The notes under the pieces are model-generated. The model did not search any database. It was not told the origin of the DNA and saw only the letters and a program-made list of their open reading frames with translations. Below are positions 6,780-35,383 of a stretch of DNA of 64,000 nucleotides, in pieces (the stretch's first letter is position 1; every line of letters starts with the position of its first letter). The DNA lies in assembly GCA_035601775.1 (NCBI GenBank), contig DATNNO010000085.1, positions 190,826-254,825 of the forward strand, given 5' to 3'. The DNA comes from Terriglobales bacterium. Its GTDB lineage: Bacteria > Acidobacteriota > Terriglobia > Terriglobales > Acidobacteriaceae. The position numbers and the translations under genes were made by a program.

Positions 6780-6968
6780 GGGAGTGCCTTTCAGTGTTTC
6801 ATCTTGACCAGACCTAGGCGCTATTTGCCCTACGGCTTTGATCGAGCATTGGGTTCCAGTCGTGCATTGCTCAACCCGATCTCGCAACCCGGCCCGGGCA
6901 GATTACGGAACTTTGGGCGTAAGACTTGAAATCGAGTAGTCAAAAAGTACCAACCCGCCTCGCAGCGG

Positions 6969-7103: not shown

Positions 7104-7133
7104 CTTGGGTATTCCAGCGCGCACGCGATTGCA

Positions 7134-8645: not shown

Positions 8646-8706
8646 TGTCGTGAGTTCGACCAAGCAGGCACAGTCCCAGGGTGCCTAACCCAGTCTTTTC
8701 CGTGTT

Positions 8707-10221
8707 TTAATTGTCCAACCTAGTCAGTGCTTCCCACGGCTTGATGCCAGCAGGTCCATTTGGCGCCAGGAGCGCCCAGCCTAACCCGGCGGAGTACAAT
8801 AACCCACCGCATGCAACCTGGAGGATCAGCGAGCCATAATGGTGGGCTGGAAACTCTTGTCTCATGAGCAAGAGTACGCCGGCGAGCGGCACACAGAGAC
8901 TCAAGGGCAGCATGTAAGCCTGGCTGAGAAAGGTGCTCAAAGGGATGTCCAGCTCGCGACGGACGTGCCTTGGAAGAAAAAACACGCAGGTAAACGTTAA
9001 TGGAATTGCCGTGCCGAGTGCGACACCGACAATTCCGAAATGAGATAGCAACCAGATGCTCAAAATCAAGTTGATTGCACCTTCGAGCAATAACACTGCG
9101 GCTAGCGTTCGGTGCCTGCCGATGCCGAGCAGGATTCTCGTTGAAGTCGACTGCGCCAGGTAGATGGTTTTGGGCACGGCCAAGATCACCAAAACAAAAT
9201 AGCTGGAAAGATACTTGGTGCCCACCCAAACTTCAATGATCGACCTGCCCAGGATCACCAGAATCGCGCAGAGAGGAAAGATTATGAGTGCACACGCGCG
9301 GTTTCCCGCCACAAGAGTCCGCCGCAGACGCACCACATCTCCAGTAGCATGCAGGTGGCTGGACATAGGAGTAAATATTACCGCCATGCTTCGGACAGCG
9401 GAACTTGAGTATTCGACCAGCTTTGATCCGATCGAGAAATAAGTGACTGCACTCGAAGAAAGCAGCGCTCCGATAAGGATCGGGTCCGATTGGAAGCGGA
9501 GTTTCTCCGCCAGAAGAATCACAAAAGCAAACGCACTATAGCTCAACATCTGCCAAAAGGAGTGACAATCGACATACCTCGGGCTTAACCTTAGAGGGCA
9601 AGCTCGGAAGGCCATCCCCATGAAAATCAGATAGCCGAAGAGGTTCATCCCGACCGTGATGGCCCCAATCGCCACCAACCCGCCCCCCTGGCTCAGCGCA
9701 ATCACGATCAGTAGGCCGCGGAGCAGCGTAACTCCGACCTGGCTAAGATGTAGCCAGGAGAACTTCTGCAACCCCTCGAGAACTGCGGCAAATACGCTTA
9801 GCGGAAAGGACAATGCCACACCGGCGCCCGCCAGCGCAAACAGTACCCGCGCCGATCCGAGAAAGCTAGGTGGTATTTTGAAAAGCGATTGCAGGTGAAA
9901 GAACCCCATTCCAGTAAGTAGCAACACAACCAACGACGCAATGGCATAGAAGGCGACGCTCGTGCTGAGAAAGCAGCTGAGTTTGTCTGCGTTCTGGGTT
10001 GCCGCAAACTTGGCAACATATCGCACGATGGAAGATCGGATCCCAAGATCGAGGAGTCCGTAATATCCGGTCAGGGAGAAGACCAGCACCCACAGGCTAA
10101 ATGCATCATCGCCCAGCCTATGGAGGATGAAGGGAGAAAGAAAGAAACCAACCACCGCGTGGACCAAAAGGCCCAGCCATGTGGCACTAACATTCTTCGC
10201 GGCTTGTTCCCTCAGACTCAT
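8707..10221 (-). CDS. MOP-superfamily oligo/polysaccharide flippase (Wzx-like)
   Basis: 504 aa with ~12-14 TM helices. N-terminal KNVSATWLGLLVHAVVGFFLSPFILHRLG is typical of polysaccharide biosynthesis (PST/MOP) flippases. Confidence 0.7.
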   Translation of the reverse strand: MSLREQAAKNVSATWLGLLVHAVVGFFLSPFILHRLGDDAFSLWVLVFSLTGYYGLLDLGIRSSIVRYVAKFAATQNADKLSCFLSTSVAFYAIASLVVLLLTGMGFFHLQSLFKIPPSFLGSARVLFALAGAGVALSFPLSVFAAVLEGLQKFSWLHLSQVGVTLLRGLLIVIALSQGGGLVAIGAITVGMNLFGYLIFMGMAFRACPLRLSPRYVDCHSFWQMLSYSAFAFVILLAEKLRFQSDPILIGALLSSSAVTYFSIGSKLVEYSSSAVRSMAVIFTPMSSHLHATGDVVRLRRTLVAGNRACALIIFPLCAILVILGRSIIEVWVGTKYLSSYFVLVILAVPKTIYLAQSTSTRILLGIGRHRTLAAVLLLEGAINLILSIWLLSHFGIVGVALGTAIPLTFTCVFFLPRHVRRELDIPLSTFLSQAYMLPLSLCVPLAGVLLLMRQEFPAHHYGSLILQVACGGLLYSAGLGWALLAPNGPAGIKPWEALTRLDN

Positions 10222-11671
10222 GCCAGTTCTTACGAGAAAACTCTAATCTGGTGGAGTCGCCGGGCAACTCGTCCGACCTCCATCGTGGTTCCTCCGAAGC
10301 AGCGTCGTGCTGCTCGCAGCTGAATGCTCGATTCTGGATTGTCAGCGCCGACGAGATCGGTCGCTGCCCAATTACGCCTGGCTGAGGGGCTAAATGTGCG
10401 GTCACTTTGTTCAGCCGCCGCCAACGTGGGATTTCCCAGAGGTATCGTAGCCCTGCCGTCACGTGGAAAAGAAGTCGGATGAGTACGCGCTCGAGTTGTC
10501 GCCCGCGTTCTCCGGAGTTTGTCGAAGATTTGGTTGTTATCGAGCGGGCCCTCCGAAAGAGTTGCTCCCAAGGCAACAGCCGAATCCGCATTAGGTGTCT
10601 CCTGGCCCTTGCGTCAGAAAGATATTGCCGATGAAGGAAGAGGATAACCTTGGCAACTGAGAACAGGCTGAATTGGTCAACTCGATTTTTCCCAAATACC
10701 CACGTCCGCGCATAGTTTTGAATCCAGATTCGAACTGCGGGACGAAGCTCCTCCGCCCAAATCCTTGAGGGCGACGGAAGGGGTGCTCCGTAAAAATGCG
10801 CGGATAGCTCGGTAACCACGACCACCATCTCGCGCAGCAGCGGGTCGCCTCCGATGCGTCGCTCGACGCGTCCCCATAGCAATGTGTCAGGTGCCCGCTG
10901 ACTGAGAAAGTATCCAATCTCGTACAGCCAGGACATTCGCACCCAGCCACTCAAAATGTGGTTGAAAGCGTGGATGACTTGAAGCAGGAATACGTCTTCC
11001 TCGGGAAGCGTACGAAAAGCCAATCCCTGCCATCGATGAGTTCTTATGTTGTCCACAGAGAACTCGGGTTCCGTCAAAGACACGCCATGGGAGTCGCTAT
11101 CCCAGAAGGCGAGACGCAATTCGACCGCATGAGGGGCGTGTGCCTCGTACTGCTCATCGGCAAGCGGCGGCATCCATGCTGATGCCATCAAGAATACGAA
11201 CTCGTTAGCGGAGGACTTTTTCAGGGAGTATCCAGCGTCCTCCAGTACGCGTCGCGCCACTGGCAGCGATTGATTATCAACCAAGTAGTCGAAGTCGCTC
11301 TGGTGCCGTAGAGACGCATCGGGACAGAACTGAGGGACAAGGGAAAGCCCCTTCACGGCCGCATATCTCACGCCGGCGCCATTGAATTTCTGGTTGAGAA
11401 AATCAAATTGACGCGCCATGTAGGCGACACGTCGCCGATTGGCAGTTAAGTTCTCCTCGAGGCGAGACAATGTCGACCTCGGCAGTATGTCGGTGGCGTT
11501 TGTGTCCTTGAGTTTTTGTAATAGATAAAGGATTAAGCCAGCATCGTGCAGCCATGTGAGTGCGTGCTCCCACTCACGGCGACGAAATCCCCTCAGTTCG
11601 TTTAGGCAGCCACTTGTCTTTCCTGAAAAACTCAGGAAATCGACGATGGCGTTGGGCAAAGTTTGCCTCAC
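10187..11671 (-). CDS. Uncharacterised nucleotidyltransferase-like protein (NTP_transf_5/PF14907-like)
   Basis: GTG start at 11671. GLSLVPQFCPDASLRHQSDFDYLV resembles the DxD-containing core of the NTP_transf_5 family. The 3-prime end overlaps the flippase start by 35 nt. Assignment is by eye only. Confidence 0.45.
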   Translation of the reverse strand: MRQTLPNAIVDFLSFSGKTSGCLNELRGFRRREWEHALTWLHDAGLILYLLQKLKDTNATDILPRSTLSRLEENLTANRRRVAYMARQFDFLNQKFNGAGVRYAAVKGLSLVPQFCPDASLRHQSDFDYLVDNQSLPVARRVLEDAGYSLKKSSANEFVFLMASAWMPPLADEQYEAHAPHAVELRLAFWDSDSHGVSLTEPEFSVDNIRTHRWQGLAFRTLPEEDVFLLQVIHAFNHILSGWVRMSWLYEIGYFLSQRAPDTLLWGRVERRIGGDPLLREMVVVVTELSAHFYGAPLPSPSRIWAEELRPAVRIWIQNYARTWVFGKNRVDQFSLFSVAKVILFLHRQYLSDARARRHLMRIRLLPWEQLFRRARSITTKSSTNSGERGRQLERVLIRLLFHVTAGLRYLWEIPRWRRLNKVTAHLAPQPGVIGQRPISSALTIQNRAFSCEQHDAASEEPRWRSDELPGDSTRLEFSRKNWHESEGTSREEC

Positions 11672-11822
11672 GACCCGACCTGGACTGGTCCTTCCGCAGA
11701 GAATCGAGCGGGAAATATTGTTCTAAGCTGTGAGGACAACGTCAATGGCAACAGCAGTTCTCGTTGCTGAGAAGCTGGGTTCTCCCTAGCGGACGCCATC
11801 GTGAAAGTGATAACCAGAGTTC

Positions 11823-12605
11823 TCACCGCCCACCTCGCAACCTGGTCTCCGCCGAGGTACGTCTAAACTGGCAGACTAGAACCGCGGGCAGTTGGCAGGC
11901 CCGTGTGAACAAATGGCTTTTCCCCGCTCGGGCGAAGATCGGCTTTTCCGGTTCTCCAAGGCAGAGTGGGAGGTGTGTAAGGCACTCGAACCCTCCCGAG
12001 TAGAAAGCTCGGATAATTTCTTCAGCCGTGCGAGGCAACATCTCGATTTGCATGGCACTGCGGGAATCACGGAAGCCAGTTCGCCATCCTCGCGCGTATG
12101 CCTCGGGGTGGAGATCACTGACAAAAACATCCGCTCCAGCCTTCATCACCCGTGCCAGCTCGCGCACCATCGCTCCCAGGTCACGGATGTGTCCGAGAGC
12201 GAACGAACAGACAACAAGGTCGAAAACCTCTGATCGGAATGGAAGCGCGAGGCAATCGGCCTGTGCCAGCCGTCCCGCTATCGCGGCCTTTTTTCCGGCA
12301 ACCCGAAGCATCGCAGCCGACAAATCAACGCCGATTCCTACACCGGCACCCCGCCCCGTAAGCTTCTCGAGCCACCGGCCGGTACCGCACGCGAGATCAA
12401 GCACGTGTCTGCCACTCAAGTCGGGAAGGTGCGCCGCGAGCTTACGTTCTTCGAGATTGAGTAACGGGTTGGGAGCCTGGTCATAGGTTGGTGCCCAACG
12501 CTCATAACCTTCCGCGACGGAAACATAAGGAGCAACCGAAAAATCGGCTCTACAATTCGATGATCCGATATCGCCGGATTCCGACGTGCTGGAGATCTGG
12601 TTCAC
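11823..12605 (-). CDS. Class I SAM-dependent methyltransferase
   Basis: VLDLACGTGRWLEKL (motif I) and FDLVVCSFALGHI. Start set to GTG at 12605, which overlaps the upstream rSAM stop as GTGA (12602-12605). The track ORF runs on to 12878 inside the rSAM gene. Confidence 0.8.
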   Translation of the reverse strand: MNQISSTSESGDIGSSNCRADFSVAPYVSVAEGYERWAPTYDQAPNPLLNLEERKLAAHLPDLSGRHVLDLACGTGRWLEKLTGRGAGVGIGVDLSAAMLRVAGKKAAIAGRLAQADCLALPFRSEVFDLVVCSFALGHIRDLGAMVRELARVMKAGADVFVSDLHPEAYARGWRTGFRDSRSAMQIEMLPRTAEEIIRAFYSGGFECLTHLPLCLGEPEKPIFARAGKSHLFTRACQLPAVLVCQFRRTSAETRLRGGR

Positions 12606-14065
12606 AGGCTTTCCGCCTTCGGCTTCCGCAGGTCGATGAACTCCTGGGTCCATTTCAGTTCCAGGGGCGCGGCATAGACGCCTAGCCGATATCGCCAACT
12701 GCTCAGGGCTTTGAGCACGACGCGGCCCCAGTTGGGCAAACGGATGTCCTGCACCGTCGGCCACCTGGAGGACACCACCAATTCGAAGTTGTCGATCAAC
12801 TGCTTGGTGCCAGGCCGCAGCCAGGGTGTTTGGGGATCCTTCTGAGTGGCGAATCGCTGCCAAGAATCCGTTGCCCACTCATCCGGGGTGGTGGGAAACT
12901 GAAACTTGTCCTCGACATCTCCATACATACGCGCACGCTGCGGAACCGGAGTGTAATGCTCGACGATGATCTCTGAATCTGGATTCAGCCGCTTCAGTTG
13001 GCGGATGAATTTGATGCACTCCCGAGTGTCGGCTTCGGGATCCTTTGGATTTCCGAAGATGATGGAGAATTCGGGAATGATGCCGAAGCGCCGTATTCGC
13101 GAAGCTAGAGCGAGAGTGTCTTCGGCGCAGAGGTCCTTATTCATCTCCTTTAGGTTTTCGTTCGATCCCGATTCGGCGCCGAAGAAAATCATGGCGCAGC
13201 CGGCGCGGCGAATGGCTTCGAACGTGGCGTCCGAGTACTTCATCATGATGTCGGTACGGCCTTCGCACCACCATCGCATCTTGAGCGGGGCCATCCGGTC
13301 CGCCAGTTCACGGGTGTGGTCCTCGCGCAGGAAAAAATTGTTGTCGTAAAACTGAATGGCATCGACGCCATAGGTTTGGGCGAGGTGGCGCAGCATGCCT
13401 TCGGTCCGAGCCGGCGATTCCATCTTTTCGCGGCTGCCGGAAAAGTTGACTACTCCGCAAAAATTGCAGCGAAAAGGGCACCCAATGCTAGCCTGGTGAA
13501 CCGCGGTGCGGCGGCCTAGGAACGTAGGCAGGAAATATCTCTCTGCCGGAATGCGATGGTATGGGTACCAGGGAAAATCGTCGGGACTTCGCATGGGACG
13601 CTCAGGATTGTGACGAGGAGTTCCGTCAGCGTCCTTGTAAGAGAGCCCGTTGATACTCTTGAGATCGCGATGTCCACGAATTGCTTCCAGCAAGTCGAGC
13701 AAAGTCTGCTCGCCCTGGCCGCGGACCGCGTAATCTACGTAGCCTGCGTTGAGAGCGGCAGCCGTATAGTTGGTAGCGAAGTAGCCTCCCCAAACGATCG
13801 GCAGGTGCGGGAATCGTGCTCGAACCTCGCGGCAGCTTGCGACAGCACCGACCGTCTGCGGTCCCGGCATGACCGTAACTGCCAGGAGTTCAATCCCATG
13901 CTCCCTGATCAGCGCGACCAGACTCTCGGTGGGATTTGGATCGATGTTGCCATCGACGATGGTGTATTCCTCTTTGCCCTCGAGCACTGCCGCGATCGCT
14001 AAGATCGACAACGGGAGGCGGCGGTTACGAGGCTTGGTTGCCTTCGGGTTATACAAGACGATCAT
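12602..14065 (-). CDS. B12-binding-domain radical SAM protein (class B rSAM), subfamily 1
   Basis: CPFRCNFC motif. N-terminal MIVLYNPKA ... VTVMPGPQ ... VWGGYF. The C-terminal extension ends in W-Y-LG ... LELKW, analogous to the paralogues. Confidence 0.85.
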   Translation of the reverse strand: MIVLYNPKATKPRNRRLPLSILAIAAVLEGKEEYTIVDGNIDPNPTESLVALIREHGIELLAVTVMPGPQTVGAVASCREVRARFPHLPIVWGGYFATNYTAAALNAGYVDYAVRGQGEQTLLDLLEAIRGHRDLKSINGLSYKDADGTPRHNPERPMRSPDDFPWYPYHRIPAERYFLPTFLGRRTAVHQASIGCPFRCNFCGVVNFSGSREKMESPARTEGMLRHLAQTYGVDAIQFYDNNFFLREDHTRELADRMAPLKMRWWCEGRTDIMMKYSDATFEAIRRAGCAMIFFGAESGSNENLKEMNKDLCAEDTLALASRIRRFGIIPEFSIIFGNPKDPEADTRECIKFIRQLKRLNPDSEIIVEHYTPVPQRARMYGDVEDKFQFPTTPDEWATDSWQRFATQKDPQTPWLRPGTKQLIDNFELVVSSRWPTVQDIRLPNWGRVVLKALSSWRYRLGVYAAPLELKWTQEFIDLRKPKAESL

Positions 14066-14133
14066 GTGCTAGGTGTCACCCCGAGACTGGAGACTGGTTG
14101 GCGCAGTTAAGGTACCAATCGGAGGGAGGGGAC

Positions 14134-14269
14134 TTGTCTCTAATTTGTCAACATTCTGCAAATTCCCCGTGACTATCCATCGATTTTTCGGTCTCCATCT
14201 CATAGTGCCACAAAGAAGTGACACAAATTTGACAATCTGCTGACAAAACACCTGTCCCATCTGTCCTAG
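14134..14269. promoter_or_regulatory. Bidirectional control region, copy B, between divergent rSAM genes
   Basis: Paralogue of 6969..7103 in the same orientation. TGTCT/TGTCA/TGCAA at 14135, 14146 and 14157. TGACA at 14219, 14230 and 14241. Terminal TCCTAG at 14264-14269. Confidence 0.55.
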
Positions 14270-14471
14270 ATTTGCTTACTCCTCTTGCATAGGTGCGGTA
14301 GATGCTGCGAAGCAATCGACCGCAATGGAGACGCGAGAGTATATTGGCGAGTGTGGTTTGGCGATCCCGCGCCTCTTAGAAGACGACGCCTCCTGACGAG
14401 CGCGGAGCTGAGCGAGCGTACGTAGGAAGTTTGCTGATATTTTTACTACCGACGAGCGAGGCGCAACTAGC

Positions 14472-15983
14472 GTGGCTGACGTTCTGCTAACCCATTCCTA
14501 TCACCTTTATTACGACCGCAAGCAGACGCGGAAAATGCAGCCTTATCCTCCGCTCGGCACGCTTTATGCGGCTGCCTTGCTGCGAAGCGCGGGCCTATCC
14601 GTCGCGTTGTTCGACACCATGCTCAACGATCCCGAGCAAGGGTTTCAGGCTGCTCTCGACGAGCACCGACCCCGGGTCGTCGTGGTCTACGAGGACAACT
14701 TTAACTTTCTTACGAAGATGTGCCTCACCCGCATGCGGGAAGTTGCCTATCACATTCTTGAGGTCTCGCAGAAGGCCGGGACCGCGGTCCTGGTAAATGG
14801 CTCTGATGCTTCCGATCACGCTCTGGAGTACCTTCGAAAAGGCTTCCGCTCCGTGCTGCTGGGCGAGGCGGAATGGACATTGTTAGAAGCAATCCAACAT
14901 CTCTTGAAAGGGGACAGCCAGGAAATAGCACAGACTCCCGGGCTGGCATATTTGGATGACGAGACTCAAGAACTAGTCCGGACGCCACATCGCCCGCTTA
15001 CGCGCGATCTCGACCTCTTGTCATTTCCTGCCCGCGATCTGATCGATGCGGCTCAATACCGCACTGCATGGAAAACTGCTCACGGCTATTTCTCCCTGAA
15101 TATTGTCGCGAGCCGCGGTTGCCCCTACCGCTGCAATTGGTGCGCAAAGCCCATTTATGGCGACTCATTCGCCGTGCGGTCGGCATGGAGCGTTGCCGAA
15201 GAGATGAGGCGGCTGAAATACGACTTCGGCGCTGAGCATCTGTGGTTCGCCGATGACATCTTCGGCCTCCGAGCGAAATGGGTCCGCGAACTTGCTGTGG
15301 AGGTCGAGAGGCTAGACGCTGCCGTACCTTTCAAGATGCAGTCCCGAGTTGATTTGATGACCGTCGACACCGTACGCGCTTTGCGCCGGGCCGGGTGCGC
15401 CGAAGTCTGGTTAGGTGTCGAGTCGGGGTCCCAGAAGATTCTGGATGCAATGGATAAGGGAACTCGAGTGGAACAGATCGCGAAAGCACGGGAGAATTTG
15501 CGGAACGAGGGGATTCGGGCATGCTATTTCCTTCAGTTTGGATACCAAGGCGAGACCTGGGAGGACATTCAGAAGACGGTGAAACTCGTGCAAGATACGC
15601 GTCCCGACGATGTAGGAGTCTCGGTTTCGTACCCGCTCCCGGGAACAAAATTCTTCGACCGAGTGCAGGCACAGTTGGGCGACAAGACCAATTGGTCGGA
15701 TAGCGAAGACCTTTCCATGATGTTCCAGGGCGCGTACACAGACGAGTTCTATCGCGCCTTGCACGACGCTTTGCATGCCCAAGTTGATTCTTGGCATTCA
15801 CACAAAGCGCAGGCCACCGGGAAGGACCTGCGTGCAAACCTTGACCCAGACGAACTGTGGAAGCGAGTCGTGCAGCTTGAGAAATCGTGCCGTAGCGCTC
15901 GCCCCACCGTTGTGCCGAGTCTTGCAAGCCAACAACTGGTGCAATTGCAGGCAGGCCCTGGCCTGACGTGCGGGGATGACTAG
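14472..15983 (+). CDS. B12-binding-domain radical SAM protein (class B rSAM), subfamily 2
   Basis: GTG start. CPYRCNWC motif. N-terminus VLLTHSYHLYYDRKQTRKMQPYPPLGTLYAAALLRSAGLSV is paralogous to 16006..17400. Confidence 0.85.
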   Translation: MADVLLTHSYHLYYDRKQTRKMQPYPPLGTLYAAALLRSAGLSVALFDTMLNDPEQGFQAALDEHRPRVVVVYEDNFNFLTKMCLTRMREVAYHILEVSQKAGTAVLVNGSDASDHALEYLRKGFRSVLLGEAEWTLLEAIQHLLKGDSQEIAQTPGLAYLDDETQELVRTPHRPLTRDLDLLSFPARDLIDAAQYRTAWKTAHGYFSLNIVASRGCPYRCNWCAKPIYGDSFAVRSAWSVAEEMRRLKYDFGAEHLWFADDIFGLRAKWVRELAVEVERLDAAVPFKMQSRVDLMTVDTVRALRRAGCAEVWLGVESGSQKILDAMDKGTRVEQIAKARENLRNEGIRACYFLQFGYQGETWEDIQKTVKLVQDTRPDDVGVSVSYPLPGTKFFDRVQAQLGDKTNWSDSEDLSMMFQGAYTDEFYRALHDALHAQVDSWHSHKAQATGKDLRANLDPDELWKRVVQLEKSCRSARPTVVPSLASQQLVQLQAGPGLTCGDD

Positions 15984-16005
15984 ATCCCGCGGGCCGAATC
16001 GAAAC

Positions 16006-17400
16006 ATGGACATACTTCTCACTCACGGTTACTTCCTTTACGAGGATCCTAAGGAGCTTCAAATCATGAAGCCCTATCCTCCACTGGGGATCCTGTACAT
16101 CTGCGCGCATCTGCGGAGCAAGGGCCTGAGTGTTGAGGTGTTCGATTCCACTTTCTCATCGCGCCAGCAACTATTTGAACTGCTCCAGCAGGGCCCTCCA
16201 TCCGTGCTCGGCATCTACGCAAATCTGATGACCCGACCCAACGTCGTCGAGATTCTGCGTGTCGCAAAGGATGCAGGCTGGAAGACGATGGTTGGTGGCC
16301 CGGAGCCCAGTGCTTATATCGACGAGTACCTCGAAGCGGGTGCAGACGTCATTGTGATCGGTGAGGGAGAAGTCACGCTGGAGGAATTGGTACCGGTGTT
16401 GAATTCGCATTCCGTCGACGCCTTACAGCACGTCAACGGCATTGCTTTCCGGGCTGCGGACGGAACCATCATCCGCACGCCTCCGCGAGATCAACTCCGA
16501 GACATCGATGCTCAGCCTTGGCCGGCGCGCGAATCGATCGATTTGACGCGCTATCTGACAGTCTGGCGCGAGCACCACGGCATGGGGTCGGTGTCGCTGA
16601 TCACGGCTCGCGGTTGCCCCTATCATTGCCGCTGGTGCAGCCACGAAGTTTTTGGCAAAACCCACCGCCGCAGAAAGCCGGCGTCGGTGGCCGACGAACT
16701 TGAGTGGCTAATTGGTCGATACCAACCCGAAATGGCTTGGATGGCCGATGACGTCTTCACCATTCACCACGGTTGGCTCTTTCAGTACGCCGCCGAACTT
16801 AAGCGGCGGGGACTGAAGTTGCCTTTTGAATGTATTTCGCGCGCCGACCGGTTGAGTCCTCAAGTTGTCGCAACCCTCGCTGAAATGGGATGCTTTCGCG
16901 TGTGGATCGGCTCCGAGAGCGGCTCGCAGCGCATCTTGGATGCTATGGAACGGGGCGTCACCGCTGAAGAAGTACGATCCGCGGTAGCTATGTGCAAATC
17001 GCACGGAATCAAAACTGGAATGTTTCTGATGTGGGGCTACGAGGGCGAGGAGCTTGGCGATATCGAAGCGACTATTGAGCACGTGAAGAAAACTGATCCC
17101 GATATCTTCTTCACCACCGTTGCATATCCGATCAAAGGCACTCCCTACTTCGCGGAAGTTGCAGACCGCGTTGAGAACCTCAAGCCGTGGAACGTGGGCT
17201 CGGACAGGGAGGTTCGCATTCGTAACCGGCATTCACGTCAGTTTTACAGCTTTGCCGATAAGTTGCTTCGCAGCGAAGTTGAGCTGGAACGCCTCCGGAA
17301 CGAACCTATTGTTGACGGATACGCCATTGCGGAATTGCAATCCAAAGTCTCTGATTTCCGCGCTGGCTTGACAGCGGCTGCCCATGAGATGGAGACCTGA
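16006..17400 (+). CDS. B12-binding-domain radical SAM protein (class B rSAM), subfamily 2
   Basis: CPYHCRWC motif. N-terminus MDILLTHGYFLYEDPKELQIMKPYPPLGILYICAHLRSKGLSV. ATG at 16006 is preferred over the track start at 15976, which overlaps the upstream gene. Confidence 0.85.
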   Translation: MDILLTHGYFLYEDPKELQIMKPYPPLGILYICAHLRSKGLSVEVFDSTFSSRQQLFELLQQGPPSVLGIYANLMTRPNVVEILRVAKDAGWKTMVGGPEPSAYIDEYLEAGADVIVIGEGEVTLEELVPVLNSHSVDALQHVNGIAFRAADGTIIRTPPRDQLRDIDAQPWPARESIDLTRYLTVWREHHGMGSVSLITARGCPYHCRWCSHEVFGKTHRRRKPASVADELEWLIGRYQPEMAWMADDVFTIHHGWLFQYAAELKRRGLKLPFECISRADRLSPQVVATLAEMGCFRVWIGSESGSQRILDAMERGVTAEEVRSAVAMCKSHGIKTGMFLMWGYEGEELGDIEATIEHVKKTDPDIFFTTVAYPIKGTPYFAEVADRVENLKPWNVGSDREVRIRNRHSRQFYSFADKLLRSEVELERLRNEPIVDGYAIAELQSKVSDFRAGLTAAAHEMET

Positions 17401-17404
17401 GCCC

Positions 17405-18232
17405 ATGGCAGTCGCTCAAGCGCAAATTTATGCAGCCCCGTTCGACGCTATCGCCGAGCGCTACGACGAGACTTTTACCACGTCGAAGATCGGCCGAGCC
17501 CAACGCGCATCGGTGTGGAAAGAACTTGAGAGAGTATTTCGCCCTGATGATCGTGTTCTTGAAATTGGCTGTGGCACGGGTGTAGATGCGTGTTTTCTGG
17601 CAGAGCATGGCGTGACGGTGGTTGCCTGCGACAACTCACCTCAAATGATCACAGTGACGACTCGCAGAGTCAAAGAAAACGGAAAAGATAGTTTGGTGTT
17701 TCCGCATTTGCTCGCGGCCGAAGACATAGCCAGCTTGCAAAACGGCGACTCCTTCGATGGAGCATTCTCGAACTTCGGGGCGCTCAATTGTGTTCAGGAT
17801 CTCCAGCGATTCGCTAGAGACTTGGCGATTCTTCTCAAGCCCGGTGCGACGGCTTTGCTCTGTTGGATGGGCCCGTGCTGCTTATGGGAAATCATGTGGT
17901 ATCTCGCTCAGGGAAAACCGGGCAAAGCCCTCCGACGATTCCGTCGCGCGGGCGTGACCGCGCGACTGGCAGAGGGAGCAACCGTTCGGGTGCATTACCC
18001 TTCGGTACGGTTACTCGCACACATCTTCGCACCTCAATTTCGCCTCGTGTCCATCAAAGGGATTGGTGTTTCGGTGCCGCCGAGCTACCTCGAAACTTGG
18101 GCAAATCGGTTTCCAGGTCTATTCGGTTTGAGTATGCGAGCCGATTCACTCTTGGGCCGCTGCCCCGGCATGCGCGCGGTTGCCGACCATATCCTGCTGG
18201 AATTCCGTCGTGAAAATCTTGAGTGGCGATAA
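17405..18232 (+). CDS. Class I SAM-dependent methyltransferase
   Basis: VLEIGCGTGVDACFLAEHG (motif I) and FDGAFSNFGALNCV. ATG at 17405, 5 nt after the upstream stop. Confidence 0.8.
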   Translation: MAVAQAQIYAAPFDAIAERYDETFTTSKIGRAQRASVWKELERVFRPDDRVLEIGCGTGVDACFLAEHGVTVVACDNSPQMITVTTRRVKENGKDSLVFPHLLAAEDIASLQNGDSFDGAFSNFGALNCVQDLQRFARDLAILLKPGATALLCWMGPCCLWEIMWYLAQGKPGKALRRFRRAGVTARLAEGATVRVHYPSVRLLAHIFAPQFRLVSIKGIGVSVPPSYLETWANRFPGLFGLSMRADSLLGRCPGMRAVADHILLEFRRENLEWR

Positions 18233-19287
18233 TGAGCACTCTCGTATCCATTTCGGTCGCCCGCGAATCGACTGGCAGCGACGCTTCTGACCTTGCCGCA
18301 CACCAACTCCGTGCCATGCCGGTCGTAGTGATTTCGCCGCACAACCAGTGCAATTGCCGTTGTGTGATGTGCGACATCTGGCGGATTCGCGATCCCAAGG
18401 AAATCACGCCCACAGATCTCGAACGACAATTGACTTCATTTCGCGAACTTCGTGTCCGCTGGGTTGTGTTTACCGGCGGCGAACCACAGATGAATGGCCA
18501 GTTGAGTTCTTTGGCGCAGATGCTCCGCGCCGAGGGAATCCGCGTAACCATGCTTACCGCCGGGCTGTTGTTGGAATCTCACGCCGAATCCATCGCTGCG
18601 AACATCGACGATGTGATCGTCTCCCTGGACGGGCCACCTACGGTGCACGACCACATACGGCGTGTTCCCCACGCTTTTGAACGAATAACAGCCGGGGTTA
18701 CGGCATTGCGAAAGTTCCGGCCCGACATCGAGGTGCGGGCGCGCTGCACCGTCCAGAAAGCAAATCACCGCTCGCTCTGCGAGGTAGTGCAATCGGCGAA
18801 GGAAATAGGCTTGAACTCGATTTCGTTTCTCGCAGCCGATCTCACCTCGGACGCCTTCAATCGCCCCCAGGGTTGGTTGCCCAAACGCCAAGACCGGGTC
18901 GCTTTGAAGGCTGAGGAAGTCGATGCGCTGGAGGCAGAAGTCGAGCGGCTCATCAGCGAGCACCAGATCGACCTGGATTCGGGGTTTGTGGTCGAATCAG
19001 CCGGAAAATTGCGCCGTATCGTGCTCCACTTCCGGGCCCACCTTGGCCAGGCACAGCACGTCGCACCACGCTGCAACGCGCCTTGGGTCTCCGCTGTGAT
19101 TGAGGCGTCGGGTGAGGTCCGTCCGTGCTTTTTCCATCCTTCGTTCGGGAATGTTCACAATCAAACCTTGCACCAGATCGTGAATGGTCCCGAAGCGCTG
19201 AAGTTTCGAGCGAACCTTGATGTTGCAACCAACCCAATCTGCCGCCGATGCGTGTGCTCTCTGCACATTCCGCGCCACGAAGAATGA
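18232..19287 (+). CDS. Radical SAM protein with Cys-rich SPASM/twitch-like C-terminal domain
   Basis: CNCRCVMC (CxxxCxxC). C-terminal cysteines CNAPW ... RPCFF ... CRRCVCSL. ATG at 18232 overlaps the upstream stop as TAATG. Confidence 0.75.
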   Translation: MSTLVSISVARESTGSDASDLAAHQLRAMPVVVISPHNQCNCRCVMCDIWRIRDPKEITPTDLERQLTSFRELRVRWVVFTGGEPQMNGQLSSLAQMLRAEGIRVTMLTAGLLLESHAESIAANIDDVIVSLDGPPTVHDHIRRVPHAFERITAGVTALRKFRPDIEVRARCTVQKANHRSLCEVVQSAKEIGLNSISFLAADLTSDAFNRPQGWLPKRQDRVALKAEEVDALEAEVERLISEHQIDLDSGFVVESAGKLRRIVLHFRAHLGQAQHVAPRCNAPWVSAVIEASGEVRPCFFHPSFGNVHNQTLHQIVNGPEALKFRANLDVATNPICRRCVCSLHIPRHEE

Positions 19288-19297
19288 GATGGGAGGC

Positions 19298-20029
19298 TTA
19301 AGACCCCGACTTGAACACGAAATCTACCGCCTTGGTTTCATTCGTTCCCACCGTAATTTTCTGGCTCTGGGTACCGAGCTTCTCATGCCACGCCTTGATC
19401 GTGTAGGTACCAGGCGGAAGACCTTTCAATTCGAAACTCCCGTCCTTGTCCGTAACCACAAAATACGGATGCTTGAAAACCGCGATGTAGCCTCGCATCC
19501 ACGGGTGCACGTTGCACTTGACTGGGATGGCGATCTCTTCCCGCGGAAACGTTTCTTCGATGGCCAGCCCATGCGGCTGCGTCTTATTCCATTCCCGATT
19601 GTTGTTTGGCATCGGATGAATGTTGTGCGTAGTTTCGTCGCTGTTGACCACATTCAGCTTCTGGTTCGCTTGCAACGCAAGCACATGCGGCTTGTATTGG
19701 CAGCCTTTCTGCTCGATGACGGCGGGTTGCGGCGGCGGTTCAAATGTTCGGTCTCCCAAACCGTCGGAAACATAGACGATGACGTTTGCCAGGCCACCAT
19801 TGGCGCCGATTACCACATCCTCGGTCGTCGCTGGCGTGGGATGCGACTTGGCACAGTTGGGATCGGACGACATGTCGATTTTAGTCGGTTTGAGTGCGGA
19901 GCCCTCAAACTTCGCAATACCCTTCAATGATCCGGCGGCGGCCGCATCTGCGGCACCCGCAGGGACGTAAGCGGCCAGGGATAAAGCAAGTGCTGCGGTT
20001 ATCACGATTAGGCCGTACTTGGTTTTCAT
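19298..20029 (-). CDS. Secreted cupredoxin-like (amicyanin-type loop) protein with C-terminal carboxypeptidase-regulatory-like domain
   Basis: Signal peptide (LIVITAALALSLAAYVPAGA). Candidate type-1 Cu ligands are THNIHP (His) and CNVHPWM (Cys-x2-His-x2-Met, as in amicyanin CTPHPFM). C-terminal DKDGSFELKGLPPGTYTIKAWHEKLG. Confidence 0.65.
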   Translation of the reverse strand: MKTKYGLIVITAALALSLAAYVPAGAADAAAAGSLKGIAKFEGSALKPTKIDMSSDPNCAKSHPTPATTEDVVIGANGGLANVIVYVSDGLGDRTFEPPPQPAVIEQKGCQYKPHVLALQANQKLNVVNSDETTHNIHPMPNNNREWNKTQPHGLAIEETFPREEIAIPVKCNVHPWMRGYIAVFKHPYFVVTDKDGSFELKGLPPGTYTIKAWHEKLGTQSQKITVGTNETKAVDFVFKSGS

Positions 20030-20161
20030 ATACCACCCGCTTTCTGTCCCTCGCAGTTGCGACGGCTGTCGCCTTTCGGGACGGTTGTTACAAGATAGAC
20101 TTGTCGAGTTACCACGTATTGCATGAGACGTGGCAGATTGGACCTGAACTTCGCATAGGTC

Positions 20162-20959
20162 TCACTCCGCTTTAGGCTCGGCCTGCGCTGGGCTGGGCCT
20201 ACCCTTTGCAGCCGCACGGAGCGTATGTATGTAATGCACTACGTCCCATATCTGGTCCGGTTTCATAGCATCCGTAAATGAGGGCATCGGAGTGCCGTCG
20301 AGGCCGGTGGTCAAGTCACGGAACAGCCCTTCATCCGACTCTCCACACTTAAACCGCGTTCCACCGCTCAGGTCGAAAGGTGTGATGGGATAGCCTTTAC
20401 TGTCGGTGAGCGAAGCCGCAGACGGACCGTTCCCCCGTCCTTCCTTGCCGTGGCAAAGCCAGCAGTTCATGCTCTGGAAGAGCTCCGCGCCGCGCTTCAC
20501 GCTCTCGGCCGAGGTGGGCGGCTCGGGAGGTATCGGCAGTGGAGCGGCCGGTTTCTCTTCCTGAAATCGTGGAGAGAAGCTCTTGATGTACGCGATCAGG
20601 TCGACCCGCTCCTGCCGCGTCAGAGGCTTCCACGAAGGCATTCCGCTGGCGTGGATGCCACGGCTGATGGTGTCGTACAAGTCGCTATCCAACGGCAGAC
20701 TTCCGCTCGGCGTCGATCGGCATTTGAATGTGGCCTTGGTGAAATCGCGAGGCTTCGGATCGAGATAAGGCGCGCTGTCTCCAGTTCCGTCGCCATACGC
20801 ACCGTGGCAGAAAATACAGTAGCGCTGGTAGAGCGCTTTGCCGTGGCTGGCATTCCCTGCCAAATTACCGACGTGGGTCTGTTGTGCGACAGCGGTCAGA
20901 CTCAACAAGAGGGAAACGAAGACCACCGCGCCGCCGGCCAAACTGATTTTAATGCGCAT
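20162..20959 (-). CDS. Dihaem c-type cytochrome (c4-like)
   Basis: Two CxxCH motifs (CIFCHG, CWLCHG). Signal or TM N-terminus. ATG at 20959 is preceded by GGAGA. The track ORF start at 21055 overlaps the upstream gene. Confidence 0.8.
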   Translation of the reverse strand: MRIKISLAGGAVVFVSLLLSLTAVAQQTHVGNLAGNASHGKALYQRYCIFCHGAYGDGTGDSAPYLDPKPRDFTKATFKCRSTPSGSLPLDSDLYDTISRGIHASGMPSWKPLTRQERVDLIAYIKSFSPRFQEEKPAAPLPIPPEPPTSAESVKRGAELFQSMNCWLCHGKEGRGNGPSAASLTDSKGYPITPFDLSGGTRFKCGESDEGLFRDLTTGLDGTPMPSFTDAMKPDQIWDVVHYIHTLRAAAKGRPSPAQAEPKAE

Positions 20960-20978
20960 GAACCGTTCTCCTCTCTCC

Positions 20979-22328
20979 TCAAAAATCAAAATCAAATCCC
21001 ATGAGATAACTGTTATTAATGTCGTCTTTGCCGGAAAGCGGCGCTGTTCCCGCATTGACGATGCGTGAATACTCCTGCACCCAGGCGAGGCCAGCTCGAG
21101 GGTTCATGATCGGATACCAGCGATAGCCGACGGTCCAAGTGTCGAGATTCCCCGCGTTGCTGCGCATACCGGGATTCGCCTCCCGCGACATTCGAATCAA
21201 CTCATATCGGCTAATCAAGATAAGTCGGGGGTTGTAGTCGTAATGGCCTTCCACAAAACCGCCGTTCCATGACGGACCAACCGCACCAACTGGCAACTTC
21301 GAGGGCTGATTAGCCGGCACGGAATTACCCAGGAAAACGTTGTCGTACCCATGCATGTAAAACGTTTGAAAATCGAATTTACCAAAGTACCACTGCCCAT
21401 ACGCACCCGCGCGATAAAAGCTACGGTTTCCCATGCCGGTTCCCGGGATCGGTCGGCCTCCGGTAGTTTGGAAAAAGGTGGGAGATTCGCCGAAATAACC
21501 GTAGACTCCGACCCGTTGCAAGCCTAATCCTGGGACTTCGAAGCCCTGGTTAAGGTTCGTGTAAACGTCGTAGGTTTGGTTCGAGGGTAAGCCCGTCAGG
21601 CCGTTATTACTGCTGACCACGGCGACGGAGTAGCGGGTGTAATCGTTGTCGGAGTGTCCCGATACCTCAGCGCCGAGCTGGAGGTTGCCAATGCCAGTAA
21701 AAAAGTTAGTGTCACCCGGCGGGGTAAAGAAATAGTTGTAATAGAGTGCTCCAGTATTGTTGATCGTCAGAGCTCGCTCCTGGGAAATCGGCTCATCCAG
21801 TTCAAACTTTCCCATTTTGAAGTTTAGCCAGTGCGATCCGACAAGATTGTCCAGGCGTACCCACGCTTGTGCCAAACCAGCGCTTGAGTTTCCGATGAAC
21901 GGTTGCACAAAGAATGAGATGTTTTTGTAAAGTGTGCCCGCTGTAACTATGTCAATGCCGCCAACATCGAATCCAGATGCAGTGACTGTGGACTCCACGA
22001 GGCCACTGCTCTTGTTGCCGGGAACCTTGTCCACCGGTACGCGTTTCGTGCTCTCCCGATGCCAGGTTGGCGTCACGCGAAACATGATCGGCCAATAGCC
22101 CGGTTGCTGATATATGGGAGCATCGCGATCGTTGCCCAGCTGATATCCGTTGTCTTTGAAGGTCTGCCCGAAGTTGTTCAGCATTGGCCAGGCCTCGTGA
22201 CACGCGGAACAAGGAAGGCCGTACTTGCGGGCGAAGGCAGGAATGGCATGCGCGGGCCGGACCGCCGCCAGCAGCACCATTGCAACCATCAGATGCGTGC
22301 CTATTTTTTTCAACGCCACAATTCCCAT
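20979..22328 (-). CDS. Cyc2-like fused monohaem cytochrome-porin (outer-membrane beta-barrel with N-terminal CxxCH)
   Basis: ATG at 22328 with AAGGAG SD. Signal peptide ends in AHA. FARKYGLPCSACHEAWPMLNNFGQTFKDNGY follows directly (single CxxCH plus P-x-L). About 400 aa of alternating beta-strand-like sequence end in ...YLMGFDFDF (C-terminal Phe). Confidence 0.6.
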   Translation of the reverse strand: MGIVALKKIGTHLMVAMVLLAAVRPAHAIPAFARKYGLPCSACHEAWPMLNNFGQTFKDNGYQLGNDRDAPIYQQPGYWPIMFRVTPTWHRESTKRVPVDKVPGNKSSGLVESTVTASGFDVGGIDIVTAGTLYKNISFFVQPFIGNSSAGLAQAWVRLDNLVGSHWLNFKMGKFELDEPISQERALTINNTGALYYNYFFTPPGDTNFFTGIGNLQLGAEVSGHSDNDYTRYSVAVVSSNNGLTGLPSNQTYDVYTNLNQGFEVPGLGLQRVGVYGYFGESPTFFQTTGGRPIPGTGMGNRSFYRAGAYGQWYFGKFDFQTFYMHGYDNVFLGNSVPANQPSKLPVGAVGPSWNGGFVEGHYDYNPRLILISRYELIRMSREANPGMRSNAGNLDTWTVGYRWYPIMNPRAGLAWVQEYSRIVNAGTAPLSGKDDINNSYLMGFDFDF

Positions 22329-22473
22329 GTCCTTCTCCTTAACTTCTTGGGCAGACTGTCCCTGCCGCCGGTACCGAATGCAAAGCTTCGCCCCCCGGCG
22401 CACTAACGGCAGGTAACCCCAAGCGTGCTGTCGCAGTGACAATTTAAAGATAAAAAAGTAAGGAGTCCGAGGT

Positions 22474-22511
22474 TGTCACGGGCGGGTCAAATTTCGGTCA
22501 CTTTCTTGTCA
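22474..22511 (-). promoter_or_regulatory. Four phased TGAC(A/C) direct repeats upstream of the Cyc2-like operon
   Basis: The minus strand reads TGACAAGAAAG TGACCGAAATT TGACCCGCCCG TGACA with exact 11-bp spacing. It lies 146-183 nt upstream of the start at 22328. Confidence 0.45.
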
Positions 22512-22684
22512 CCAGGTGGCGTCCAAGCCTCCGATGTGGGCTTAACGGTGGCGCGGAGAGAGATCGTCCTAACGAGCCGCGAGACACATGCTGATAAGAC
22601 GCTAAGAAGAGCGGAATTGAACGAATCCGACCTTGCTGGGTAATCCCGAGGGCGAGCTTGCAAATGCCACAGCAGCGGAGGCGG

Positions 22685-23827
22685 CTATGCGGAAACGGTT
22701 TCGGCCAGGTCGGGGCGGGGATTTCTTTGCTTGCGCAGTTCACTCCGAAAGTCTGCGGCGGTGAGTTCCGTATTTCTCTGGAAAAGTGCGAGCAAAGGGT
22801 CTTCGATCTCAGCCAAGGCCAGCCCCTTTGAGCTAATCGGCTGGACATCGTGCATGCCCTCGGGCTCCACCACGAGCTCGGGCTGCACCCCGTTGTTGTG
22901 CCTAAGGGGGTCGATGAACTTTTCCAAACGCTCGCGCTGCTGCTTGGTGGCCCAGGTGAATTCCACTCCCATGCCGATCTCGGGGTGCATCGCGCGCACC
23001 AGGCCTTCCGCTCGACTCTCGAGTTTTGCCATCCGCATGGTCAGGATGACTCTCGTATTCAGGGGAAATGGTGCAGCTATCTCCAGGTAGCAGCCGCCCA
23101 CGCTGAGGTCGGTAAGTGTGCAAGGTGCGGGTGGATCATCTGGCTCTATCTCTGGAGAATGCCGGGCTAGCCACGACTCGAGCTGATCGCGTTGTTCCGG
23201 AGGCAGATGCACAAAGCGAATGCCCGCCTGCGGGCCGCCACCCTCCCACGCCACTTCTGCAGCGCATTCGATACTGTCGTCGGTTCCGGGCAGATTAAAT
23301 TTGATACGCATGGGACCGGCGCTCTGAGCGCACCGCGAAAGTTGTAGGGACATACCGCCTTGACTGATGTCCGAAGTGACCGCCTTTCTCTGGCCCGCCC
23401 CGTTCTCGCTAACCAAGGCCACCGGAATCTGCATGGCGACACGTGCATTGCGACGGCGTTCGCACTTCATCAAAGCCCGGCCGGCACGAAAACTAGTTTT
23501 GGCGCGTTCCGCGGAGATGGGTTTATAAAGAACAAAATGCGCGCCTAGCGCGAAGGCGCTACGCACAGCCTTTTGACCATCAATCATCGCAACGACGATG
23601 GAGCGTTGGTTGCACGGAGCGGAGCGAACGCTCTTGAGTACTTGGGCCGCCACGTCCTCGTCGTTGCAGTCGACGACCACCGCTTCAAATCTCCGGCGGG
23701 TCAATTTTCGAACCGCCGAATCAGCATCGGTGCAAAGTTCAACGGCAATTTCCAGGTCACTGAGGACTCGCCGCAGCACCCGTAGGATCTTGTCGTCAGA
23801 ACACAGAACCAGCGCTTGCAAACTCAT
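22685..23827 (-). CDS. Response-regulator receiver domain protein with two PilZ (c-di-GMP-binding) domains
   Basis: REC-like N-terminus (ALVLCSDD ... AVVVDCND ... VLYKP). First PilZ has RRRNAR ... DISQGGMSL (RxxxR and DxSxxG). Second PilZ-like domain has LTDLSVGGCYLE. Confidence 0.75.
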   Translation of the reverse strand: MSLQALVLCSDDKILRVLRRVLSDLEIAVELCTDADSAVRKLTRRRFEAVVVDCNDEDVAAQVLKSVRSAPCNQRSIVVAMIDGQKAVRSAFALGAHFVLYKPISAERAKTSFRAGRALMKCERRRNARVAMQIPVALVSENGAGQRKAVTSDISQGGMSLQLSRCAQSAGPMRIKFNLPGTDDSIECAAEVAWEGGGPQAGIRFVHLPPEQRDQLESWLARHSPEIEPDDPPAPCTLTDLSVGGCYLEIAAPFPLNTRVILTMRMAKLESRAEGLVRAMHPEIGMGVEFTWATKQQRERLEKFIDPLRHNNGVQPELVVEPEGMHDVQPISSKGLALAEIEDPLLALFQRNTELTAADFRSELRKQRNPRPDLAETVSA

Positions 23828-23852
23828 CGTGGACGAACTCCGTTAAACACGT

Positions 23853-24014
23853 TCAGCCGCCAATGGCGGCTCCTTCCCCGTGGGCTTCCTCTTCGTTGAG
23901 TAAATGAGCTACGCTGCGAAGCTGCTCAGCGGCGGTCTGCAGGGCCTCGATCTGCTTGCCCAGTTGAGCCTGCTCGGCTTGCTTCTTTCGGAGCACTTCA
24001 TAAATATCCTTCAC
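23853..24014 (-). CDS. Small coiled-coil protein (53 aa), below the ORF-track length cutoff
   Basis: GTG at 24014 is preceded by AAGGAGGC with a 6-nt spacer. Hand translation gives VKDIYEVLRKKQAEQAQLGKQIEALQTAAEQLRSVAHLLNEEEAHGEGAAIGG*. The stop lies 25 nt upstream of the PilZ regulator start. Confidence 0.5.
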   Translation of the reverse strand: MKDIYEVLRKKQAEQAQLGKQIEALQTAAEQLRSVAHLLNEEEAHGEGAAIGG

Positions 24015-24238
24015 GATACAGCCTCCTTAATGCAATGTAAGTTGGTACCCTTTGACGGTCAATGAGACAGGGCCAGGACTGGGTTACGGCAGTAATCAGG
24101 CCGTGGTCTTACAGGAGGCCGTTAAAAGTATCTTCGCTTACTTGGGACCCCCGTCTCGCTCACTGTGATGTGTGCCGTTAAAACATTTATTATCATTAAT
24201 TTACATGGACGCGATTCAACTCGCGGGTACGATTTCTG

Positions 24239-24267
24239 TTGACTTTTGCGCGAAACACCCATAGAAT
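24239..24267 (+). promoter_or_regulatory. Sigma-70-type promoter candidate
   Basis: TTGACT (24239-24244), 17-nt spacer, TAGAAT (24262-24267). It lies ~150 nt upstream of the 24420 ORF. Confidence 0.45.
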
Positions 24268-24419
24268 CAAGACCTTCCGGTTAACCCAACAAGTCGACGT
24301 ACGGGTCTTTAGAACGCTAATTTACTGGCCGCCGGTAGGATGTGAATCCCTCCGTGCGCGGAATGAATCTGAACTTTTTACCGGTGTAAGTTTATCTCAC
24401 GCACGAGGCGTAAATATCT

Positions 24420-24647
24420 ATGGCTAAGCGACGCGGAAATCCTAACTGGGGCAAGCCGGAGCCCATCGGGCCGATTGTTCCCACTATCACCGAATTCGAA
24501 CAAGTGGTACGCGAGTACAAGCTTTCGCCGGACCAGTACCTGCGCTCTACCCGGCTGCGGGAATGGGCCCGGCGCAACAAGAATTCGAAGTACATTCCTG
24601 AGCCCCTGCTTGAGGCTTGGGGGTTCGAGATCGAATCCACCCTTTAA
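24420..24647 (+). CDS. Small basic hypothetical protein (75 aa)
   Basis: ORF MAKRRGNPNWGKPEPIG..., with a good promoter upstream and an intrinsic terminator downstream. No family recognised. Confidence 0.55.
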   Translation: MAKRRGNPNWGKPEPIGPIVPTITEFEQVVREYKLSPDQYLRSTRLREWARRNKNSKYIPEPLLEAWGFEIESTL

Positions 24648-24668
24648 CTGAAGATGAATCAGAACCCT

Positions 24669-24700
24669 GAGGGTCGCCCGAGCGGCGACCCTTTGTTTTT
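24669..24700 (+). terminator. Rho-independent terminator
   Basis: Stem GGGTCGCC (24671-24678) / GGCGACCC (24684-24691), 5-nt loop, then TTTGTTTTT. Confidence 0.7.
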
Positions 24701-34167: not shown

Positions 34168-34175
34168 ACTTCGTT

Positions 34176-35381: not shown

Positions 35382-35383
35382 AA

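Follow-up and report, generated by a model that had tools for sequence, protein, structure and literature searches.

The DNA analyzed here (the window) is a 64,000-nt stretch of contig DATNNO010000085.1, from a Terriglobales bacterium of the Acidobacteriota. It contains three co-directional genes on the minus strand, termed A, B and C, each of which encodes a secreted redox protein (Table 1); a first-pass annotation, made from the letters alone, had given the same positions and described the genes as co-directional. A strong AAGGAG motif lies 7 nt before the ATG of gene A, the gene A stop codon is 19 nt from the gene B start, and gene B is 132 nt from the gene C start. All three products begin with a hydrophobic, signal-like N-terminus with a small-residue end (AHA in A, AVA in B and AGA in C), judged by inspection only. 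We scanned JGI metagenomes with an alignment of the gene A family and obtained 80 loci, in which A is 49–85% identical to that of the window. These loci were compared with the window proteins by tblastn, and the denominators below include a locus only if its flanking DNA sufficed for a judgement. The motifs and gene order of the trio are not due to chance, because they are kept across these 80 independent loci over that whole range of identity.

Table 1. Features of the three-gene locus and its upstream region, in window coordinates
Feature	Position	Strand	Description
Gene A	22328..20979	(-)	449 aa; predicted Cyc2-type fused monohaem cytochrome-porin
Parts of gene A			Signal-like segment, aa 1-28; haem segment, aa 29 to ~75; predicted 16-strand barrel, aa ~81-448; C-terminal Phe
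Cyc2 signature in gene A	22179..22247	(-)	AIPAFARKY-GLP-CSACH-EAW-PML, aa 28-50; haem-binding CSACH at 22211..22197
Gene B	20959..20162	(-)	265 aa; predicted periplasmic dihaem class-I cytochrome c
Gene C	20029..19298	(-)	243 aa; secreted; predicted type-1 cupredoxin nested in a CarboxypepD_reg (transthyretin-like) domain
Cupredoxin insert of gene C	19472..19747	(-)	aa 95-186; predicted to be nested in the CarboxypepD_reg domain
Candidate Cu ligands of gene C	19627..19625; 19516..19496	(-)	H135; C172-x2-H175-x2-M178; invariant residues
Phased array	22475..22512	(-)	Four direct [G/T]TGAC cores at 11-nt phase; operator-like
T-rich box and inverted core	22436..22460	(-)	-10-like box (TTTTTTATCTT), then inverted core copy TTGTCAC; nearly invariant in four lineages
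REC-PilZ-PilZ gene	22685..23827	(-)	Receiver and two PilZ domains; Pfam PilZ twice and Response_reg

By motif, profile and fold, gene A is predicted to be a member of the Cyc2 family of fused cytochrome-porins. Cyc2 is the most widely used genetic marker of microbial Fe(II) oxidation. The signal-like segment of gene A, MGIVALKKIGTHLMVAMVLLAAVRPAHA, ends in AHA and is followed by IPAF (again by inspection), and downstream of it the protein reads IPAFARKYGLPCSACHEAWPML. There is exactly one CxxCH, CSACH at aa 40–44, whose two cysteines are the only ones in the protein, and the C-terminus is ...GFDFDF. The signal peptide, the single CxxCH followed by P-x-L, and the C-terminal Phe had all been read correctly in the first-pass annotation. 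Keffer et al. (2021) describe Cyc2 as having a signal peptide, a single CXXCH with AXPXFAR[Q/K][T/Y] upstream and PXL downstream, and a fused OprO/OprP-like porin of about 16 strands, with a minimum length of 365 aa (PMC8406198). In the same work, the AXPXFAR[Q/K][T/Y] motif is described as 'unique to Cyc2' (PMC8406198). Gene A matches AXPXFAR[Q/K][T/Y]...CXXCH...PXL exactly and, at 449 aa, lies above the minimum length. Across the 80 related loci, the strict motif is found in 62 and a relaxed form in all. P30, F32, C40, C43, H44 and P48 are invariant among 31 diverse full-length homologues (26–50% identical), all of which end in F, Y, L or I. The family is large, with >4,600 homologues in a 90%-clustered collection and 2,642 clusters at E ≤1e-3 in a 50%-identity library. 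Gene A has no match among Pfam, NCBIfam and PDB sequences; the family is without a curated model in those libraries.

For reference, we retrieved rus operons by means of a rusticyanin sequence (100% match in Acidithiobacillus ferruginosus pCF3-2), and we read cyc2, cyc1, cup/acoP, coxBAC(D) and rus from the Acidithiobacillus operons obtained. BLASTP aligned gene A with the Cyc2 of these operons at 35% identity (E 7e-10) over only 71 N-terminal residues, corresponding to the haem segment. When the profile of the gene A family was compared with that of the Acidithiobacillus Cyc2 family using hhalign, the alignment covered 298 columns (97.7% probability, E 1.5e-12). Plasmids of Ralstonia, Caballeronia, Paraburkholderia and Methylocystis also gave tblastn matches to gene A, mostly in the N-terminal haem segment; Ralstonia and Burkholderia were among the highly sampled genera thinned from the Cyc2 set of Keffer et al. 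(PMC8406198).

AlphaFold2, supplied with the 31-sequence alignment, yielded a model of gene A with a mean pLDDT of 86.3 and a pTM of 0.83. In this model, short helices surround the haem motif and 16 strand elements occupy residues 81–448. Foldseek against the PDB placed OprP (2o4v, E 7.6e-13) first and OprO second and third (4rjx, then 4rjw, the latter with E 4.3e-12). OprP and OprO structures are the templates reported for Cyc2PV-1 of Mariprofundus PV-1 (PMC8406198). The Cyc2 relationship suggested in the first-pass annotation is thus supported by the exact consensus motif and the hhalign score, and the predicted fold is the one it anticipated, a barrel with an N-terminal haem domain, here a small helical segment.

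In common with the Cyc2 family (A. ferrooxidans Cyc2, Mariprofundus Cyc2PV-1 and Leptospirillum Cyt572), gene A has a signal peptide, a CxxCH that occurs once, 12 residues from the start of the mature protein, the AxPxFAR[QK][TY] and PxL motifs in exact form, a length of ∼450 aa, a 16-strand OprO/OprP-like barrel and a C-terminal aromatic residue. Gene A differs in its barrel, which has no detectable BLASTP similarity to Acidithiobacillus Cyc2, and in its host, a soil member of the Terriglobia. In a published similarity network, acidobacterial homologues adjoin Leptospirillum Cyt572, which would mean Cluster 3 and suggests a Cluster-3/Cyt572 neighbourhood for gene A (PMC10654088). Within the barrel, H225 (∼21656–21654), part of a G-H motif, is ≥90% conserved among homologues 26–50% identical, and N169, G173 and R232 are invariant in these homologues. 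These four residues are candidates for a distal haem ligand or a metal/anion site.

Gene B has the two CxxCH motifs noted in the first-pass annotation, CIFCH at aa 48 (20818..20804) and CWLCH at aa 166 (20464..20450), and is matched twice by Pfam Cytochrom_C. Its closest solved relative is chain B of PDB entry 6h5l (phmmer E 2e-54). The alignment runs over 213 residues (query 38–250, chain 9–221), and both haem motifs and both Met-containing segments of gene B (MPSW and TPMPSF) align with the chain. We take 6h5l to be the Kuenenia Kustc0458/Kustc0457 complex, with Kustc0457 as chain B. Kustc0457 is the dihaem partner of Kustc0458, an HAO-like nitrite reductase. With the entry so identified, gene B is predicted to be a Kustc0457-type dihaem cytochrome c. 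Unlike Kustc0457, it has no HAO-like octahaem partner gene here; its constant partner is the Cyc2-type porin. Similarity of gene B to Acidithiobacillus Cyc1 is marginal (BLASTP, 25% identity, E 7e-5), and the best solved relative, 6h5l_B, is not a c4. We therefore rejected gene B as a Cyc1 orthologue and regard it as an analogue, which has the dihaem class-I architecture in common with Cyc1.

Gene C combines a CarboxypepD_reg domain (Pfam, E 6e-10) with the motifs THNIHP (H135, H138) and CNVHPWM (C172, H175, M178), as the first-pass annotation had read it. In 120 homologues that are 69–90% identical, no substitution occurs at H135, H138, C172, H175 or M178, nor at C59 or C110. In more distant Cyc2-linked homologues (48–100% identical), HN[IV]H and CN[VI]HPWM are kept in 49/49 cases, so the proposed cupredoxin ligands are conserved among orthologues. 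Scores for the relevant Pfam profiles fall below the gathering thresholds (Copper-bind, 14.1 versus 21.2 bits; Cupredoxin_1, 14.0–14.4 versus 27). JGI labels the homologues 'plastocyanin'. The AlphaFold2 model of gene C (pLDDT 79.5) superimposes on amicyanin in Foldseek with a TM score of 0.65–0.67 and an rmsd of 1.7–2.1 Å; plastocyanins and a Thermus NirK, in its cupredoxin domain, are further matches.

The cupredoxin appears to be inserted within the other domain of gene C. In the native protein, the CarboxypepD_reg match spans only profile positions 30–80 (39.8 bits). When aa 95–186 were removed in silico, the match grew to positions 10–80 (45.4 bits). This extension argues that the cupredoxin is nested between early transthyretin-like strands. 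C59 (19855–19853) lies in the loop before the insert and C110 (19702–19700) at its start; given their positions and invariance, a disulfide that staples the nested domain is plausible. Gene C is thus predicted, from sequence and model, to be an amicyanin-like type-1 cupredoxin nested in a CarboxypepD_reg domain. Amicyanin has the ligand loop pattern C-x2-H-x2-M, and the loop of gene C follows the same pattern. Gene C further resembles amicyanin and plastocyanin in fold (TM ∼0.65, rmsd ∼2 Å) and in having an upstream H-N-I-H. It differs from them in its nesting, its subthreshold Copper-bind score and the extra invariant cysteines. BLASTP gave no sequence similarity to rusticyanin (best E 2.3) or to Cup/AcoP (E 9.1), and we rejected homology to either.

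The trio is syntenic in most of the 80 metagenomic loci, and the loci differ in their other linked genes according to the identity of A. Where A is ≥62% identical to that of the window, B directly follows A in 22/23 loci, C follows B in 20/21, and coxB was found downstream in 0/18. Closer relatives in this group also have the radical-SAM/methyltransferase cluster of the window, in convergent orientation. Where A is <62% identical, B is present in 34/34 loci (31 directly after A), C in 22/25 (18 downstream and 4 upstream) and coxB in 16/21, and a gene pair with SH3 domains in one or both members lies upstream or between A and B. In the sister clade, whose gene A is 49–58% identical to ours, coxB-coxA-coxC come directly after gene C and match Pfam COX2, COX1 (E 3e-131) and COX3. 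CoxB of this clade keeps the CuA-type residues H...C-x3-C-G-x2-H-x2-M, suggesting that the oxidase receives electrons from a cytochrome c or cupredoxin and not from quinol. At one sister-clade locus (L083, CoxB at 8040–8843) the CuA loop reads CTQLCGLGHYNM, with Gln. Canonical subunit II has Glu at this place (C-x-E-x-C-G).

Taxonomic assignment rests on two labels. The one nearest to the window's group is Ca. Sulfotelmatobacter, at 75% identity; the cox-linked group has a single label, Ca. Acidoferrum. The homologous loci come from soil, peat and permafrost metagenomes. In the cox-linked clade, the gene pair that accompanies the trio encodes proteins of ∼320 and ∼430 aa (L083, 2283–4516; L059, 6380–8628; also L066, L067, L079, L084 and L104). 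It is either divergently upstream of the trio or inserted between A and B. A bacterial SH3 domain occurs in one or the other gene, depending on the locus, and is the only Pfam match. At another locus (L052, 5001–6170), a gene A homologue matches only residues 1–389, and the 5 kb downstream of it contain neither B nor C; this copy may have decayed or been rearranged.

These arrangements invite comparison with the rus operon of Acidithiobacillus, which is ordered cyc2-cyc1-acoP/cup-coxBACD-rus. The sister clade has the same order of haem-porin, dihaem cytochrome, cupredoxin and coxB-coxA-coxC, of which the window has the first three. Two differences concern gene content: within the extent of the loci, the sister clade has no second cupredoxin gene after the oxidase genes, and the window's clade has no oxidase genes at the trio locus. 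Another concerns descent, in that B is not orthologous to Cyc1 and C is not orthologous to AcoP or rusticyanin. On sequence grounds, B and C are best described as non-orthologous replacements, or functional analogues, of Cyc1 and AcoP/rusticyanin. The earlier suggestion that the parts list mirrors the rus path is supported, with a refinement: a Cyc2-type protein, a dihaem cytochrome and a cupredoxin are present, and the latter two are analogues of the rus-operon proteins.

Among the cupredoxins of the rus system, AcoP, the green cupredoxin of A. ferrooxidans, is a better positional counterpart of C than is rusticyanin. AcoP co-purifies with cytochrome c oxidase and accepts electrons from the dihaem Cyt c4 (PMC5982212). 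Its gene lies between those for the dihaem cytochrome and CoxB, as does gene C in the sister clade, and it is likewise a cupredoxin with H/C/H/M ligands. However, the two have no sequence similarity, and AcoP has a membrane anchor where C has a cleavable-looking signal peptide. Moreover, the ligand loop of the Cup/AcoP at L001 is C-x6-H-x4-M, unlike the C-x2-H-x2-M of gene C.

Upstream of gene A lies the phased-repeat control region reported in the first-pass annotation. Its cores read, in order, GTGAC, GTGAC, TTGAC and GTGAC at exact 11-nt spacing. The array is the sole match to this pattern in the window, and 0/100 shuffles match. An automated repeat search had missed it, because the cores are only 5 nt; it was found by reading and confirmed by pattern search. 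The last copy (GTGACA) sits at the expected position of a −35 element. Together with the T-rich box and TTGTCAC, the array forms a conserved island in L025, L026 and L027 (A 78–85% identical), whereas the flanks diverge. A simple sigma-70 scan of the region upstream of gene A called no promoter; the conserved island suggests one at the T-rich box and array.

Operators of the PhoB/OmpR type typically consist of direct repeats spaced by one helical turn, the last of which reaches the −35 position. The array has this form, suggesting by analogy that it is bound by a winged-helix activator of the OmpR/PhoB type. No such regulator was found in the window. In ∼19 other relatives, a 128-aa gene consisting mainly of Trans_reg_C (OmpR/PhoB-type winged-helix) ends at or just before the start of gene A, and L027, one of the lineages with the array, has a 42%-identical copy of it ∼470 nt upstream. 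This gene (e.g. L023, 5618–6001) is stand-alone, with no receiver domain, and is absent from the window.

We propose that gene A oxidizes a soluble extracellular donor, most plausibly Fe2+, at the outer membrane and that B and C then relay electrons across the periplasm to a CuA-type haem-copper oxidase, a scheme in which we have moderate confidence. In this soil acidobacterium (Terriglobia, near Ca. Sulfotelmatobacter), the trio probably forms a self-contained, high-potential module for electron uptake. In this scheme, gene A would form a 16-strand outer-membrane barrel whose N-terminal segment holds one c-type haem, and its family membership suggests that, like Cyc2, it accepts electrons one at a time from a soluble donor outside the cell, most likely Fe2+. 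Electrons would then pass to the periplasmic dihaem cytochrome B and the type-1 copper protein C, a role that we infer from conserved synteny, signal peptides and cofactor motifs. Gene order in the relatives suggests that these carriers feed a CuA-containing A-family haem-copper oxidase, which in this genome would have to lie outside the window. Transcription presumably starts just downstream of the four 11-nt-phased [G/T]TGAC repeats, which are arranged as is usual for winged-helix activators of the OmpR/PhoB type. Here we presume which donor is used, in what order the carriers act, which way the electrons flow and what kind of regulator takes part, with Fe(II) as substrate proposed by analogy to Cyc2.

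Several observations weigh against this proposal. The barrel of gene A resembles that of validated Cyc2 in fold only, with no significant BLASTP similarity, and divergent Cluster-3-like homologues are functionally the least certain of the Cyc2 proteins (PMC8406198). There are no cox homologues anywhere in the window, as the first-pass annotation had noted for the operon, and, as described above, none of the judged loci in the window's own clade has a linked oxidase. We found no RNA-seq runs containing gene A. The papers searched yielded no cultured Fe(II)-oxidizing acidobacterium, and the Acidobacteriia of soil are known more for Fe(III) reduction (PMC7980381).

Given these points, it is worth asking whether the same architecture serves another donor, such as reduced humic quinones, Mn(II) or Cu(I), or works in reverse, as an outlet to Fe(III) or humics under anoxia. 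Class-I c haems with an aligned Met, and type-1 Cu with a Met, are usually high-potential, and this argues against such a role, as does the direct joining of the trio to an O2 reductase in the sister clade. A monohaem porin also lacks the multihaem wire of known outward conduits. On the other hand, a different donor or direction would be consistent with the lack of a linked oxidase in the window's clade, with hosts that live in humic-rich peat and permafrost, and with the divergence of the barrel, for Keffer et al. urge caution about distant homologues (PMC8406198). We regard this alternative as rather unlikely, though it is the main rival to our proposal.

Two further explanations were considered. 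Gene A could be an ordinary anion- or phosphate-type porin whose haem serves in sensing, detoxification or iron handling, with B and C as general respiratory carriers not dedicated to it. The closest folds, the phosphate porins OprP and OprO, are what such a protein would show. Yet the haem motif is invariant in a very large family (2642 clusters in the 50%-identity library at E ≤1e-3), A and B are adjacent nearly universally, usually with small gaps (19 nt here), and the gene order of the sister clade reproduces the rus operon, all of which make this explanation improbable. Gene B might alternatively mark a nitrogen-oxide pathway, as the partner of an HAO-like nitrite or hydroxylamine enzyme, with A and C serving that pathway. 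This idea stems from its best solved relative, 6h5l_B, presumably the partner of HAO-like Kustc0458. However, the window has no multihaem ORF, A and B being the only real genes in it that carry CxxCH; the conserved neighbours examined in relatives encode Cox subunits or proteins with SH3 domains, and no HAO-like gene was seen among them; and B constantly adjoins a Cyc2-type gene. We consider a nitrogen-oxide role very improbable.

FeGenie-based metagenome surveys already score Acidobacteriota as cyc2-positive, without a supporting pathway (PMC10367259, PMC13594681), and acidobacterial relatives of Cyt572 were already included in the published network (PMC10654088). Full-text searches of an open-access collection gave no account of the operon, of partners of the Kustc0457 or nested-cupredoxin type, or of a version linked to cox genes. 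Our analysis indicates that the acidobacterial gene is a well-formed Cyc2-type haem-porin that is nearly always accompanied by a specific dihaem cytochrome and a copper protein. These constant partners, together with the oxidase link in the sister clade, make the cyc2 marker much more credible in Acidobacteriota, and the trio provides concrete proteins for testing iron oxidation in the phylum.

It is conceivable, if on balance doubtful, that the abundant Terriglobia of soil, peat and permafrost, in lineages close to Ca. Sulfotelmatobacter and Ca. Acidoferrum, oxidize Fe(II) facultatively by way of an independently assembled operon. This operon would converge on the rus architecture with non-orthologous carriers and, in one clade, would include an aa3-type oxidase. 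If so, these 'heterotrophs' would be a large unrecognized Fe(II) sink in acidic, microoxic soils. Should the function be confirmed, iron oxidation by such very abundant bacteria of soil and peat would bear on how the cycles of iron, carbon and phosphorus are modelled for acidic soils and thawing permafrost. The re-used dihaem cytochrome, which would be of anammox type if 6h5l is the entry that we take it to be, and the nested cupredoxin likewise illustrate how a respiratory chain can be assembled convergently.

A co-directional REC-PilZ-PilZ gene (TIGR02266-type) immediately precedes the operon; it is a possible regulator and suggests c-di-GMP-linked signalling. We observed it only in identical contigs and in L025, the nearest relative; in other relatives, its place is taken by the 128-aa Trans_reg_C gene or by unrelated genes. 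Because it is kept only in L025, we did not count it as part of the module. An Rfam scan of positions 19000–24700 gave no RNA family match.

On the other side of the trio, positions 5268–19287 are occupied by a dense cluster that includes five B12-binding radical-SAM genes, one SPASM radical-SAM gene, a methyltransferase gene, a polysaccharide flippase-like gene and an NTP_transf_5 gene. The last genes of this cluster converge on gene C, the stop codons being 10 nt apart, and they adjoin the trio in relatives down to ∼62% identity and not in the sister clade; as the cluster is kept in close relatives only, we rejected it as part of the module. Farther away, a nuo operon on the plus strand at 34017–47171 encodes the complex I subunits D, F, G, H, L, M and N; the GC skew of this region is markedly positive compared with that of the remainder of the window.

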